This document shows, in pieces, positions 1 to 4,492 of a DNA stretch of 4,492 nt (within the stretch, counting starts at the first letter, position 1; each line of letters starts with the position of its first letter). The notes under the pieces are model-generated. The model did no database searches. It worked only from the letters and a program-made list of their open reading frames with translations, and was not told the DNA's origin. A program made the position numbers and the translations under genes. Source of the DNA: a virus. Taxonomy: Duplodnaviria; Heunggongvirae; Uroviricota; Caudoviricetes. The stretch is taken from the IMG/VR virus record IMGVR_UViG_2711768166_000010. The stretch is one strand, 5' to 3'.

Positions 1-612
1 GTGAGCGAAATTAATTACCAGGCACTACGTGAGGCGGCAGAACGTGCAACTCCAGCAATGGAACGCCTGTTAATGTTGCCAGTTGATGATGATCTGATAA
101 GCGAACAGGAACTTAAAGATAGCGGTGTTGATATTGATGCCCTCAACGCCTTCAAATTTCTGGCCGGACCAGAAACCGTGCTGGCGCTACTGGATGAGAG
201 CAACGCATTAGAGGAAACGCGTATCAACGATGTTTGTCGTATTGCAGAACTAACAAAACAACTGGAGTTGGCAAAATCAAAACTCAACGAGCAGCGTGAG
301 TATTACGAGGGCGTTATCTCGGATGGAAGTAAGCGCATTGCAGAACTGGAAGCACGGGAAATAAAACCAGCCAAAGGTGAAGTTCTGGTCGTTGTATCTG
401 GTTTTACTGGTTGCGGAAAAAGCGCCATCGCCGGGGAAATAGAAATCGCGATGAAGGCTATTGGTGTACCGGTTCAGTGGACTAATGGTGATGCAGAAAA
501 GCGCATGACCGGCGCTGACTGGCTGACAGCAATTGAGATGTACAAACCAACTGTGCGCATTGTGGAAGTTAATGTGCCACGCGTCGCTGGCGTTCGCATC
601 AAAGGAGAGTGA
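1..612 (+). CDS. Ead/Ea22-like prophage early protein; GTG start sits at the window edge, so the true start may lie upstream
   Basis: Uninterrupted 203-codon frame ending at TGA 610-612. N-terminal QALREAAERATP segment followed by a charged, coiled-coil-like stretch (ELTKQLELAKSKLNEQREYYEGVISDGSKRIAELEARE) resembles what I remember of Ea22-family proteins; this is recall, not a search result. The next gene starts 1 nt after the stop. Confidence 0.55.
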   Translation: MSEINYQALREAAERATPAMERLLMLPVDDDLISEQELKDSGVDIDALNAFKFLAGPETVLALLDESNALEETRINDVCRIAELTKQLELAKSKLNEQREYYEGVISDGSKRIAELEAREIKPAKGEVLVVVSGFTGCGKSAIAGEIEIAMKAIGVPVQWTNGDAEKRMTGADWLTAIEMYKPTVRIVEVNVPRVAGVRIKGE

Positions 613-616
613 CGTG
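595..616 (+). repeat. Copy 1 of a 22-nt gene-junction motif CGCAYYAAAGGAGAGTGAYGTG (stop, embedded Shine-Dalgarno, GTG start)
   Basis: Direct reading: cgcatcAAAGGAGAGTGAcGTG here versus cgcactAAAGGAGAGTGAtGTG at 1465-1486, 19 of 22 identical. In both, the upstream gene ends R-x-K-G-E-stop and the next gene starts at a GTG 1 nt after the TGA. Confidence 0.6.
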
Positions 617-973
617 GAAATAAAACCAGAAGATGAGTTAAGTAATATTGTTTTATTTCCGGTAAAAGAGGATGACCCACGTAATCAGGTTAATTTTCTT
701 TATGAGCCATCGGAAAGACCATACTGCCATCACGCTTCTGTCCGGGTTGACGAAAAAGAGCGTCAGGTCCGCTGCAAAATCTGTGGTGCAGTTGTGGAGC
801 CGTTTGACTGGATGCTCTCTGTGGCTAAAAGAGAAACCAGACTGGCAGATGATGTAAGGCTATTGCGCCAGGAGGAACAGGAAAGGCGAAAAAATATAGA
901 AAAGCTAATTCAGATTGAGCGTAACGCGAAAGCGCGGATACGCAGGGCAACAAAAGCCAGAACTGAATATTAA
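614..973 (+). CDS. Hypothetical protein with a zinc-ribbon-like C-H-H...C-x2-C cluster and a highly charged C-terminal helix
   Basis: GTG at 614 lies 4 nt downstream of AAAGGAGAG (601-609) and 1 nt after the upstream stop. Frame is open to TAA 971-973 (119 codons from the GTG). Sequence YCHHASVRVDEKERQVRCKICG supplies Cys/His ligands; the C-terminus is rich in R/K/E. The ORF track's ATG at 533 would need a 80-nt overlap with the upstream gene, so the GTG is preferred. Confidence 0.6.
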   Translation: MEIKPEDELSNIVLFPVKEDDPRNQVNFLYEPSERPYCHHASVRVDEKERQVRCKICGAVVEPFDWMLSVAKRETRLADDVRLLRQEEQERRKNIEKLIQIERNAKARIRRATKARTEY

Positions 974-1018
974 ATCAGCACTGTAAATAAAATTTAATCC
1001 TTAACCGGAGGTATATCT

Positions 1019-1231
1019 ATGTTAAATACACAGAAAACCATTAACGCGGAAAAATATAACGAGTGGGTAAAAAAATTCTCTGAGCAGATTTTTAAAATTA
1101 CTGGTGACGAGAATGTAGCAAAAAATGAATTAGAGCCGTGGACACCTGAAGGAACCGACCCAAATTATTGCTGGTGGGAGGTTGATCCGGTTGATGCTGC
1201 AAATGAAGCCATGAGTTACCACAACGATTAA
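1019..1231 (+). CDS. Small acidic hypothetical protein (70 aa, Trp-rich C-terminus)
   Basis: ATG at 1019 is preceded by GGAGG (1007-1011) at 7-nt spacing. About 14 Asp/Glu versus 6 Lys and no Arg. Stop TAA 1229-1231. Confidence 0.65.
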   Translation: MLNTQKTINAEKYNEWVKKFSEQIFKITGDENVAKNELEPWTPEGTDPNYCWWEVDPVDAANEAMSYHND

Positions 1232-1240
1232 TGTCGGGAT

Positions 1241-1258
1241 GCCGCCCGAAAGGGCGGT
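1241..1258 (+). other. GC-rich stem-loop with GAAA tetraloop directly after the 70-aa gene; no clear U-tract
   Basis: gCCGCCC-gaaa-GGGCGGt: 6 G:C pairs plus a closing G-U, GNRA-type loop. Followed by taataaaaatgg (A-rich, not T-rich), so it is not a canonical intrinsic terminator. Confidence 0.35.
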
Positions 1259-1293
1259 AATAAAAATGGCTGAACTAATCGGAGAACAAAACG

Positions 1294-1482
1294 ATGAAAA
1301 ACCGTAAAGCAAAAATTCTTTTGACCTGTAGAAATGCTCGCGGCATCCAGCAATGGTTAAAACTCAGTAACCGCAGAATGGGGCTGTTCACAAATACGGC
1401 TGATATTGTGATGTGTTCACTTAACAAGCCCAGCGCGGCGCAAAACCGCTGGAAAAACCACTTGCGCACTAAAGGAGAGTGA
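1294..1482 (+). CDS. Small strongly basic hypothetical protein (62 aa), likely nucleic-acid binding
   Basis: ATG at 1294 is preceded by GGAGA (1281-1285). Contains 7 Lys and 7 Arg versus 2 acidic residues. Ends KGE-TGA with the next gene's GTG 1 nt downstream. Confidence 0.55.
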   Translation: MKNRKAKILLTCRNARGIQQWLKLSNRRMGLFTNTADIVMCSLNKPSAAQNRWKNHLRTKGE

Positions 1483-1486
1483 TGTG
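1465..1486 (+). repeat. Copy 2 of the 22-nt gene-junction motif CGCAYYAAAGGAGAGTGAYGTG
   Basis: See copy 1 at 595-616; 19 of 22 identical, same stop/SD/GTG architecture. Confidence 0.6.
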
Positions 1487-1702
1487 CCAACATTATTCAG
1501 GAAAAATTATCCGCGAAGAAGCAGAACGATAGAATTTCTGTTTTTCATTGTGTTTATCGTGTTGCTGATACCGATATCCCCGTTAATCCTGGTCTGGGTA
1601 ATCGGAAAATTAGTTGAACCAGTTATTGAGTTATATACCGACGTGACATCGGAGCCATTCAACGCACTGCACAGTAAAATTAATCCATATAAGGAAAACT
1701 GA
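1484..1702 (+). CDS. Small single-pass membrane protein (72 aa): basic N-terminus, one hydrophobic helix, about 30-aa C-terminal tail
   Basis: GTG at 1484 lies 4 nt after AAAGGAGAG (1471-1479). Basic N-terminus (FRKNYPRRSRT) followed by an uninterrupted hydrophobic stretch FLFFIVFIVLLIPISPLILVWVIG. Stop TGA 1700-1702; the next ATG is at 1704. Confidence 0.55.
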   Translation: MPTLFRKNYPRRSRTIEFLFFIVFIVLLIPISPLILVWVIGKLVEPVIELYTDVTSEPFNALHSKINPYKEN

Positions 1703-1703
1703 A

Positions 1704-2324
1704 ATGGCTTTTACCGACAAAGAAATGATTAAAGAAATCAAAGAACGTATCAGCAGCCTGGACGTACGAGACAATATTGAGCGCCGGGCTTATGAAATAG
1801 CGTTAGCCTCGCTGGAAGCTGAACCGGTGGCATGGCAGGTCACAATCACAAAAGACGGTCAGGACTCAGCCTCTACTATTTACCGTGACTGTGCAGAGAA
1901 AGATACATGGGTTCGGATACATGAGACACTTGGTTCTGTCGTACACGTCACTCCGCTTTACATGGCACCGCCAGCGCCGGTAATACAGGCTGATGTCGCG
2001 CAGGCAATTGAAAATCTCAAGCAGAAGTTAGTGGAATGCAATCGCTATAACTACTGCGCAGATGCAGTTAAAGGCGTAGAGGATGCTTGCCGCGCCACCA
2101 TGCTTCACGGTGTCAAACCTGTAAGCCAGACTTACAAGTTGAACAAGCTGTTTGGCAACTCTCCGGTAACTCCGGATGGTTGGGTTATGGTTCCTAAACA
2201 GGTAACGCCGGAAATCAGCAACGCGATAAACGTTGTGGGTCAACGCTGTACATGCGGAAATTGCTCTCAGCGGTTGTGGGATTTATTACTCGACGCCACA
2301 CAGCAAGGGGTTAACCGTGGCTAA
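1704..2324 (+). CDS. Hypothetical protein (206 aa) with a Cys-rich C-terminal half, possibly metal-binding
   Basis: ATG at 1704 preceded by AAGGA (1691-1695). Long clean frame. Cys clusters C-x5-C-x10-C (ECNRYNYCADAVKGVEDAC) and C-x-C-x2-C (CTCGNC). Stop TAA 2322-2324 overlaps the start of the next gene. Confidence 0.7.
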   Translation: MAFTDKEMIKEIKERISSLDVRDNIERRAYEIALASLEAEPVAWQVTITKDGQDSASTIYRDCAEKDTWVRIHETLGSVVHVTPLYMAPPAPVIQADVAQAIENLKQKLVECNRYNYCADAVKGVEDACRATMLHGVKPVSQTYKLNKLFGNSPVTPDGWVMVPKQVTPEISNAINVVGQRCTCGNCSQRLWDLLLDATQQGVNRG

Positions 2325-3107: not shown

Positions 3108-3455
3108 GTGGAAGAAGAAATCTTCACTCGTGAAGAGGCAGCGTCGTATCTGAAGGTAGACAAAGGCACTATCACGCAGTGGATACGAAGTGGACGACTT
3201 CAGGCCGCAAAGATAAATCCAGATAAACCTAAAAGCCCATATCGCATTTGCAAGTCAGACTGCATTGCGGCGCTTAAGTCTGTGAGACACAATAGCGCGG
3301 TGAATGCGGTTGATGTGCAGGAGGTTAAAGCATGTCAATCAAACTACGCGGTGGCACGTGGCACTGCGATTTCGTCGCGCCAGATGGATCAAGAGTTAGA
3401 CGCTCTCTTGAAACATCGGACAAGAGGCAAGCGCAAGAACTTCACGATCGTCTGA
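3108..3455 (+). CDS. xis: Excisionase / AlpA-like helix-turn-helix DNA-binding protein (recombination directionality factor)
   Basis: GTG at 3108 preceded by GGAGA (3097-3101) at 6-nt spacing. N-terminal FTREEAASYLKVDKGTITQWIRSGRLQAAKI is a typical excisionase-type HTH. Sits immediately upstream of, and overlaps, the integrase gene. The 115-codon frame runs 124 nt into int, so the true C-terminus is uncertain. Confidence 0.7.
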   Translation: MEEEIFTREEAASYLKVDKGTITQWIRSGRLQAAKINPDKPKSPYRICKSDCIAALKSVRHNSAVNAVDVQEVKACQSNYAVARGTAISSRQMDQELDALLKHRTRGKRKNFTIV

Positions 3456-4492
3456 AAGCAGAAGCGTGGAGAGTAAAAAATCTCGGAGAATCACCGAAAA
3501 AGCTATTCAAGGAAGCCTGCATACGGTGGCTGCGTGAGAAATCGGATAAGAAGTCCATTGATGATGACAAGAGCATTATATCGTTCTGGATGTTGCACTT
3601 CAGAGAAACCATTCTCTCTGACATAACAACAGAAAAAATAATGGAGGCGGTAGACGGGATGGAAAACCGCCGCCATCGCCTGAACTGGGAAATGAGCCGG
3701 GACAGGTGTTTGCGGCTTGGCAAGCCAGTGCCGGAGTATAAACCAAAGCTGGCAAGCAAAGGAACGAAGACGCGGCATCTGGCAATACTTCGCGCTATTC
3801 TCAATATGGCTGTTGAATGGGGATGGATTGACAGGGCACCCAAAATATCAACACCACGCGTTAAGAATGGACGAATCAGATGGCTTACAGAGGAGGAATC
3901 GAAGCGCCTGTTTGCAGAAATTGCTCCTCATTTCTTCCCTGTGGTCATGTTTGCAATCACGACAGGCCTTCGCCGTTCCAACGTTACAGACCTTGAGTGG
4001 TCACAGGTCGATCTGGATAAGAAAATGGCATGGATGCACCCTGATGAAACAAAAGCTGGCAATGCGATCGGAGTTCCTCTTAACGAAACTGCATGCCAGA
4101 TATTAAGAAAACAGCAGGGTCTCCATAAGAGATGGGTATTTGTCCACACCAAACCTGCCTACCGAAGCGACGGAACAAAAACAGCAGCGGTAAGGAAGAT
4201 GAGAACCGACAGCAACAAGGCATGGAAGGGAGCGTTAAAGCGGGCAGGCATTAGCAACTTCCGCTTCCATGACCTGAGGCATACTTGGGCAAGCTGGCTG
4301 GTTCAGTCCGGTGTCTCTCTTCTCGCACTTAAAGAGATGGGAGGATGGGAAACTCTCGAAATGGTTCAAAGATATGCCCACCTTTCAGCCGGGCATCTCA
4401 CCGAGCACGCGAGCAAAATCGATGCGATTATAAGTCGCAATGGCACAAATACGGCACAAGAGGAGAACGTAGTTTACTTAAATGCGAGGTAA
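3332..4492 (+). CDS. int: Tyrosine site-specific integrase (phage integrase family) with N-terminal arm-type DNA-binding domain
   Basis: ATG at 3332 preceded by GGAGG (3320-3324). N-terminus MSIKLRGGTWHCDFVAPDGSRVRRSLETSDKRQAQELHDRLKAEAW matches the arm-binding domain pattern of lambdoid integrases. C-terminal catalytic motifs are present: TGLRRSN (Arg), HDLRHTWASW (His-x-x-Arg) and EMVQRYAHL (Tyr nucleophile). Stop TAA is at 4490-4492, the window end. Confidence 0.95.
   Translation: MSIKLRGGTWHCDFVAPDGSRVRRSLETSDKRQAQELHDRLKAEAWRVKNLGESPKKLFKEACIRWLREKSDKKSIDDDKSIISFWMLHFRETILSDITTEKIMEAVDGMENRRHRLNWEMSRDRCLRLGKPVPEYKPKLASKGTKTRHLAILRAILNMAVEWGWIDRAPKISTPRVKNGRIRWLTEEESKRLFAEIAPHFFPVVMFAITTGLRRSNVTDLEWSQVDLDKKMAWMHPDETKAGNAIGVPLNETACQILRKQQGLHKRWVFVHTKPAYRSDGTKTAAVRKMRTDSNKAWKGALKRAGISNFRFHDLRHTWASWLVQSGVSLLALKEMGGWETLEMVQRYAHLSAGHLTEHASKIDAIISRNGTNTAQEENVVYLNAR

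Follow-up and report, generated by a model that had tools for sequence, protein, structure and literature searches.

The repeated gene junction

A stretch of 4,492 nucleotides (nt) from a tailed phage of the class Caudoviricetes (IMG/VR record IMGVR_UViG_2711768166_000010), analysed here at its full length and called the window, contains two near-identical gene junctions, in each of which the end of one coding sequence also carries the ribosome-binding site of the next gene. We refer to this junction sequence as the connector. The window is 100% identical to positions 4254214-4258705 (minus strand) of the Escherichia coli strain E1 genome (NZ_CP104503.1). From the annotated neighbourhood, the host element is a prophage of lambdoid or P22-like type whose integration site adjoins a tRNA-Thr gene beside proA, and the window is the distal part of its leftward early operon, with cIII, kil, the RecT recombinase and others encoded upstream. 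The region is the early-left, pL-transcribed exo-xis accessory region. At least 80% of the window is covered in one of 5,426 complete E. coli genomes, and partial matches occur in 4,466 of them, so the window is a unique mosaic built from common pieces.

Five genes, all on the plus strand, frame the two junctions. The left partner of the first junction is ORF1 (open reading frame 1, positions 1 to 612), encoding a composite Ead/Ea22-like protein (Pfam PF13935 at residues 2-117, E-value = 1e-22; phrog_250). Its right partner is a small Zn-ribbon-like gene (614 to 973; phrog_1621), hereafter the Zn gene, which starts with GTG and has 454 relatives in IMG/VR. There follow orf70 (1019-1231, an ORF reading), a hairpin, and orf62 (1294 to 1482; phrog_1380 by profile match), which is the left partner of the second junction. 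The right partner there is a DUF4014 gene (1484 to 1702; PF13198, E-value = 1e-22), also with a GTG start. The Zn gene, orf70 and orf62 form a three-gene cassette (617 to 1464, plus strand) with a connector copy at each end, the two copies being 870 nt apart from start to start.

An earlier note, made from the letters of this DNA, had described a 22-nt repeat, CGCAYYAAAGGAGAGTGAYGTG, at 595-616 and 1465-1486. Both its coordinates and its sequence are exact: the first copy reads CGCATCAAAGGAGAGTGACGTG, the second CGCACTAAAGGAGAGTGATGTG, with 19 of 22 positions identical and an exact common core of 12 nt, AAAGGAGAGTGA. The anatomy that had been proposed for the repeat is likewise found in full. 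The upstream protein ends with R-x-K-G-E at both sites (...GVRIKGE* for 1-612 and ...HLRTKGE* for 1294-1482), the ribosome-binding site AAGGAG lies within the upstream coding sequence (602-607 and 1472-1477), 6 nt before the GTG in either copy, and the GTG codons (614 and 1484) stand one nucleotide past the TGA stops (610-612 and 1480-1482). The flanking genes are unrelated, as had been stated: their 150-nt flanks are 27% and 25% identical in ungapped comparison, and blastp finds no similarity between the flanking proteins beyond the last six residues. RefSeq/PGAP places the starts of the Zn and DUF4014 genes at the same GTGs in the source genome. The start sites 614 and 1484 are further supported because relatives carry ATG at exactly these two positions.

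In the first copy, as read from the sequence, the nonamer AAA GGA GAG (601 to 609, plus strand) provides both the last three codons (K-G-E) of ORF1 and the Shine-Dalgarno (SD) sequence, and is followed by the TGA of ORF1, the spacer C and the GTG of the Zn gene (610 to 616, plus strand). This nonamer is the invariant core of all junction variants. The second copy (1465 to 1486, plus strand) consists of the R-T-K-G-E codons, the SD at 1472-1477, the TGA at 1480-1482 and the GTG at 1484; the homology of relatives ends there at 1483/1486 or begins at 1465/1471. The description of the first copy as 595-616 stands for the junction but not for its extent, since the conserved part begins at 579 and not at 595. 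The full connector copy (579 to 616, plus strand) is the 3' tail of the ea22 family, GCTGGCGTTCGCATCAAAGGAGAGTGA, then C, then GTG, and homology to relatives whose Ea22 bodies differ starts at 579-585.

Two further repeats were seen in the window. An inverted imperfect copy of the connector, CACGTCACTCCGCTTT, lies on the minus strand at 1944-1959 within orf206 and is 88% complementary to 601-616; it is probably due to chance. An exact 14-mer, GGAAATAAAACCAG, occurs at 357-370 and 616-629 in the same reading frame, encoding R-E-I-K-P-A within ORF1 and V-E-I-K-P-E at the start of the Zn gene. Its first copy sits at an internal mosaic breakpoint of ORF1, where homology ends at 360-363. We rejected this 14-mer as an extension of the connector, because its first copy is always internal to Ea22-like ORFs in relatives.

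Taken alone, the window offers limited statistical support for the repeat. The specific 22-mer had two matches in 0 of 200 shuffles, in what is a post hoc test. In an unbiased test of the best pair of any 22-mers, 19 of 22 identities were reached in 8 of 200 dinucleotide shuffles (about 0.04). Conditional on AAGGAG, TGA and GTG as functional positions, the two copies agree at 7 of the 10 positions left (P about 0.0035). The evidence from the window alone is only marginally beyond chance and no stronger than suggestive, so it falls to the relatives to settle whether the repeat is real. The related genomes show it to be real and shared by descent.

Breakpoints of homology at the connector

The motif had been suspected to mark mosaic breakpoints, and this is borne out in IMG/VR loci and E. 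coli genomes alike, where sequences 95-100% identical become about 25% identical right at the edges of the motif. Among combinations with the same left and a different right partner, the left flank is at least 90% identical in 39 of 46; with the same right and a different left partner, the right flank is at least 90% identical in 101 of 124. Pairs of the first kind often stay 97-100% identical up to the end of the connector and drop to about 25% directly beyond it, and those of the second kind are the mirror image. Counted from the first A of the core, the ends of the shared sequence lie at +9 to +16 and its beginnings mostly at 0 to -21. On the window, the breakpoints cluster at 579-585, 612-616, 1465-1471 and 1486-1490.

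The complete E. coli genomes show the same pattern at each junction. A 221-nt query across junction 1 had 2297 matches in 1,809 genomes, with at least 80% coverage in 76; most of the sampled matches begin at window position 579-585, and a few end exactly at 612. A 211-nt query across junction 2 had 671 matches in 566 of the 5,426 genomes, with at least 80% coverage in 2, so that only two of the 566 genomes with the orf62 tail continue into the DUF4014 gene of the window. About 50 of 60 sampled matches at this junction end at 1483 or 1486. As a soft internal control, the connector-free junction between the Zn gene and orf70 has essentially two right-hand contexts, versus at least 8-10 at connector junctions.

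The E. coli matches to orf62 mostly begin at window position 1423 or 1426, so wide sharing is limited to its last 60 nt or so and the connector, and the first two-thirds of the gene is a separate mosaic segment. Loci in which an Ea22 gene directly precedes DUF4014 (within L044-L056) were considered as deletion derivatives and rejected, since their identity to the window is 84-95% around the joint and is lost further out.

Partner genes in related phages

We fetched 80 IMG/VR loci each for the DUF4014 gene, the Zn gene and orf62, chosen by the neighbouring genes and not by the motif. Upstream of DUF4014, the connector occurs behind at least five unrelated left genes: Ea22 tails ending ...GGCATTCGCATCAAAGGAGAGTGATGTGCC, orf62, and genes ending ...KILRSNKGE*, ...CQAVNIGNKGE* and ...AKAASKGE*. 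An alternative, connector-free context exists for DUF4014, in which the gene comes after a hairpin and its start codon is ATG. Before the Zn gene we always found the ea22-type tail GCTGG[C/T]ATTCGCATCAAAGGAGAG, attached to many different upstream bodies. The commoner form at this place is GAGGAGCATG, where the upstream ORF reads on and overlaps the next gene; the form of the window, GAGTGACGTG, is in the minority among the closest Zn gene homologues and frequent overall. At least eight different genes lie downstream of orf62 genes ending ...TTGCGCACTAAAGGAGAGTGAT. All four combinations of the partners seen in the window occur: Ea22 with Zn, orf62 with DUF4014, Ea22 with DUF4014 (L044, L049, L051, L056), and orf62 with Zn (L113), the last in a locus of permuted gene order (orf70-orf62-Zn). 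Other tails, AAATGGGAGTGATATG for one, are found in some orf62 homologues.

An exact scan for AAAGGAGAGTGAYGTG returned at least 120 stretches. About half of the listed matches fall at junctions in enterobacterial prophages; the others occur singly in unrelated phages, by our estimate in roughly the number expected by chance in a collection as large as this. Next, for every AAAGGAGAG site in the loci fetched, we grouped the 120-nt sequences on its left and on its right into clusters. The resulting network has one large connected component around the AAAGGAGAG core, with at least 28 left clusters, 15 right clusters and 50 edges, to which unrelated phages add singletons only.

The earlier note had left two ways for its proposal to fail, namely that the motif might not be enriched at gene junctions in relatives and that the similarity might be limited to a generic SD sequence. 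Neither is the case. ORFs of at least 40 codons lie on both sides of 114 of the 118 unique network junctions with a TGA. The joint reads TGATATG in 57, TGATGTG in 31 and TGACGTG in 20, and a few have spacers of 2-3 nt. Beyond the SD, the junctions have in common the K-G-E codons, the TGA, the 1-nt spacer, the start codon and a 5' GCA. The unrelated left proteins all end with KGE* (…IRIKGE, …LRTKGE, …RSNKGE, …IGNKGE, …AASKGE, …LQGKGE), with the synonymous codons and the stop codon the same in each. This tail is carried by non-Ea22 proteins too, these being orf62 and at least four other families.

The Ea22 tail and P1-like phages

Copy 1 is the canonical 3' tail of ea22-family genes, because the same tail is present in lambda ea22, in HK022 and in HK620 hkaG. 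The lambda ea22 gene ends GCTGGCATTCGCATCAAAGGAGAGTGAG, with no gene directly after it. The Ea22-like gene of HK022 ends ...AAAGGAGAGTGATATG and is followed by an orf206-like gene, and the junction of hkaG and hkaF in HK620 reads ...AAAGGAGAGTGAGATG. Dydecka et al. observed that Ea22 proteins all end with '+GE', a feature of unknown significance (2020; PMC7093339). Our comparison suggests that this constraint would act on the nucleotides, with K-G-E being AAA GGA GAG, the SD sequence of the next gene.

ORF1 itself is composite, with internal mosaic breakpoints at about 360 and 579. It combines the N-terminal coiled-coil domain of Ea22 (residues 2-117 in Pfam), a middle segment with a Walker-A-like GFTGCGKS (residues 110-203 match a separate PHROG, phrog_11761) and a last segment that is the conserved tail from 579. 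PGAP starts this gene at window position 58, versus position 1 in the ORF list.

The window segment 585-1483 is found as one block, at 91.5% identity, in the P1-like Punavirus vB_EcoM-Ro157c2YLVW (L002, MH160767.1 77248-80732), with connector variants at both ends. Of the E. coli matches to the orf62 tail, about half lie on plasmids with sizes of roughly 90-100 kb. Since the orf62 tail occurs on plasmids of this size and the block in a Punavirus, the same cassettes and connectors circulate between lambdoid prophages and P1-like phage-plasmids.

Other boundary elements and neighbouring genes

The connector ending in KGE is one of several connector types in this region. A third junction has the same architecture and another sequence, AAGGAAAACTGAAATG (1690 to 1706, plus strand), comprising an SD-like tail, the DUF4014 stop (TGA), one nucleotide and the ATG of orf206. 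The DUF4014 tail AAGGAAAACTGAWATG and the hairpin GCCGCCCGAAAGGGCGG behave like the KGE connector. In relatives, at least ten different right-hand genes follow the DUF4014 tail AAGGAAAACTGAAATG, several of them from families that follow AAAGGAGAGTGATATG elsewhere. The terminator-like hairpin GCCGCCCGAAAGGGCGG, then TAA, lies after orf70 at 1240-1265. It is common to loci with different left sequences, and in many loci it stands directly before a DUF4014 gene with an ATG start (…GGGCGGTAAGAAATG). By appearance, this hairpin is a second type of conserved boundary element here.

The next gene, orf206 (1704-2324, plus strand, an ORF reading), is followed by an ASCH gene and orf114. PGAP divides orf206 into a pseudogene fragment and a coding sequence. 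At about 2084-2112, shorter genes of relatives end with ...ACRAAMLHGKGE* plus a connector, where the window reads ...ACRATMLHGVKPV...; this resemblance, which is at the protein level only, suggests that orf206 may be an in-frame fusion where a connector once stood. The integrase gene (3332-4492), preceded by an excisionase, adjoins the tRNA-Thr gene and encodes a thrW-specific phage integrase. The 72-amino-acid DUF4014 protein matches phrog_1832, annotated as 'released from the phage upon host infection', which is the wording used for the gene 20 ejection proteins of P22 and HK620. For a small hydrophobic protein of an early operon this label looks like a transferred annotation and a poor fit.

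A probable connector for cassette exchange

We propose that the repeated junction is a shared translational-coupling connector, which marks the exchange of gene cassettes in the exo-xis region and probably mediates it through short-homology recombination. We give this reading a probability of about 0.68. The interpretation of the earlier note, a conserved linker, is supported by the concentration of the motif at junctions, by the breakpoints at the motif and by the reassortment of both left and right partners. We infer that recombination starts within the motif and that translation is coupled across it.

The connector is made of AAA GGA GAG, which is both the last three codons of the upstream gene and a strong SD sequence, then the TGA, a spacer of 1-3 bases and the start codon, ATG or GTG, of the gene that follows. 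It would most likely ensure tight, possibly coupled, translation initiation of the downstream gene, and its geometry would allow termination-reinitiation. Between unrelated gene pairs, these 16-22 nt (about 31-37 nt in the ea22-tail version) are the sole homology between the neighbourhoods, and mosaic joints fall at the connector. Because a connector c is common to unrelated neighbourhoods, a recombinant L1-c-R2 of L1-c-R1 and L2-c-R2 must have its joint in c or at its edge. Exchange between co-resident phages or prophages would most likely proceed by recombination at the short homology that the connector provides, together with a second crossover elsewhere. Phage single-strand-annealing recombinases or RecA could catalyse it, the prophage itself encoding RecT. 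Gene cassettes would thereby be swapped, inserted or deleted, with reading frames and ribosome sites undisturbed. A new gene, when it was first joined to a connector, must still have been so by an illegitimate or microhomology event.

Several observations weigh against such a role. The two copies in the window share only 12 contiguous identical bases, and the stretch common to unrelated partners (9-22 nt) is below the published minimal segments for efficient pairing, which are 23-27 bp for Red-beta-type recombinases and 31-34 bp for RecA (PMC3945230). Because of this shortfall, exchange at the shortest connectors would be inefficient or microhomology-mediated; the ea22-tail connectors share about 31-37 nt, and shared lengths as a whole straddle the published minima. 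Nearly every gene boundary in the region is a breakpoint, as a model based on selection only also predicts. No near-identical relative lacking the 870-bp cassette was found among the genomes and loci searched, which leaves the comparison with no direct pair of states before and after an exchange. Finally, many loci were retrieved by the motif or by adjoining genes, so the partner counts carry an ascertainment bias, and the IMG/VR prophage loci are phylogenetically redundant.

The strongest of the alternatives, though an unlikely one, is the standard model of illegitimate recombination followed by selection (PMC3233612). Joints would form anywhere and those at gene boundaries would survive, the motif being kept only as a good set of ribosome-binding site, stop and start, with no part in recombination. 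Breakpoints at the motif-free boundaries 1018, 1264-1278 and 1706-1724 agree with this model, as does a shared core shorter than the published pairing lengths. Random joints, however, should vary from pair to pair, and about 50 combinations share the same 13-16 nt. Convergence on an SD sequence would not fix synonymous codons, TGA over TAA or TAG, a 1-nt spacer and a KGE tail. We favour the connector over both random joining and SD convergence because the synonymous codons, the TGA, the spacer length and the protein tail are shared by these 50 or so combinations.

Hardly better placed, and if anything a shade less probable, is the view that the junctions are passive relics, the 3' end of the ea22 family having been copied onto orf62 and a few other genes by one or a few ancient events, with no continuing role in exchange. 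The identity of copy 1 with the canonical ea22 tail of lambda, HK022 and HK620 is in line with this view, and so is the resemblance of the orf62 tail to it (T.CGCA..AAAGGAGAGTGAT); the orf62 homologues with other tails likewise point to an acquired orf62 tail. A few ancient events are difficult to reconcile with dozens of combinations in which one flank is 97-100% identical and the other unrelated, which indicate many recent exchanges at the motif, or with the same right-hand genes lying behind several different connector-bearing left genes.

A site recognised by a site-specific system (integron-like, or the target of a homing endonuclease) or a structured RNA element is very improbable. Cassettes bracketed by a repeated short sequence do superficially resemble integron arrays, but the motif shows neither inverted repeats nor a hairpin, folding predictions for the two copies disagree and lack significance (z -0.9 and -1.5), and the sole nearby recombinase is the thrW-specific phage integrase with its excisionase. 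Rfam has no match anywhere in the window, which together with the differing, non-significant folds led us to reject a known or structured RNA family. Our scan found no promoter-like or terminator-like site near either junction, terminator-like hairpins being reported only at 2603-2654, and a promoter/terminator cassette was rejected, as neither signal is present at the motif. We also considered a prfB-like programmed +1 frameshift at GAG-UGA-C, given the +1 frame of the Zn gene, and rejected it for want of a slippery P-site codon and because the stop is missing from the common junction variant. Lastly, a chance resemblance of two strong ribosome-binding junctions, for which the any-pair shuffles left some room, is opposed by the register of both copies with stop and start and by the matches at non-functional positions, and is effectively refuted by the comparative data, with the same sequence at junctions in hundreds of related loci.

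The connector hypothesis can be taken further, to a version that we regard as an even bet. KGE-TGA-N-ATG/GTG, together with sister connectors such as AAGGAAAACTGAWATG, would be a standardised 'plug' for several dozen accessory-gene families in the exo-xis region, and as few as 16-30 bp of homology would be enough for phage annealing recombinases to exchange cassettes of one gene, in frame, among lambdoid, P22-like and P1-like phages. If true, this would be a natural and directly testable instance of the linker hypothesis of Susskind and Botstein, and would explain the K-G-E ends of unrelated proteins, all Ea22 variants included.

Since 1978 it has been debated whether mosaicism arises through recombination at short linkers or through illegitimate joining at random with subsequent selection, and clear examples of linkers at the sequence level are few in lambdoid phages. 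The connector is short, precisely defined and present in hundreds to thousands of E. coli genomes with nucleotide-sharp breakpoints, which makes it a convenient substrate for an experimental test of linkers. It offers a simple explanation for the '+GE' C-terminus of Ea22, and connects the accessory genes available to lambdoid prophages with those of P1-like phage-plasmids. Annotation of such junctions calls for caution, as the connector dictates the protein tails and GTG starts there.

Comparison with known systems

The modular theory of phage evolution reportedly goes back to Susskind and Botstein in 1978, and Clark et al., in 2001, are said to have proposed seven boundary sequences for HK620 and its relatives. 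The concept of recombination at boundary sequences is already known. The connector is a new, or at least a newly documented, boundary sequence, with the reservation that the ea22 tail may be among the seven of Clark et al. A full-text literature search for the 12-mer AAAGGAGAGTGA returned no phage paper.

Two papers (PMC3233612, PMC3945230) contrast homologous recombination at conserved boundary sequences with the illegitimate-recombination model, and present the lambdoid boundary or linker sequences as a proposed focus of the homologous recombination that assorts modules. The connector resembles these sequences in being short, conserved and located at a gene boundary, where both its copies span a stop and the next start; in being kept between non-homologous adjacent genes; and in having breakpoints at the sequence and partners that reassort on both sides. 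It differs from them as a unit of 16-22 nt made of coding tail, SD, stop and start, which separates single small genes rather than modules and also occurs in P1-like phage-plasmids.

In mechanism, the nearest parallel is the PeSL cassettes of T4-type phages (Arbiol et al. 2010, PMC2839356; PMC4122927). There too, short expression signals are repeated on either side of small variable ORFs in plastic regions; insertions, deletions and replacements end at these signals, which double as homology for recombination. PeSL elements are transcriptional (an early promoter and a terminator-like stem-loop) and intergenic, whereas the connector is translational and much shorter, with no promoter-like site at the motif and no significant or shared hairpin. 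Integron attC sites are set apart by their inverted repeats, the connector having none in its motif and the integrase at 3332-4492 being of the phage type.

Like translationally coupled gene pairs, the connector junctions have an SD 6 nt before the start and within the upstream ORF, a stop 1 nt before the start, and both genes on the same strand, here in the pL operon. Ordinary junctions of this kind are pair-specific, whereas the connector is reused between dozens of unrelated pairs; coupling is suggested here by the geometry. Lastly, the '+GE' end of Ea22 (Dydecka et al. 2020, PMC7093339) is the same feature at the protein level, a K/R-G-E end kept despite divergent C-terminal domains. Our reading differs in that it would place the constraint at the level of the DNA or mRNA, and in that the same tail is found on proteins outside the Ea22 family.

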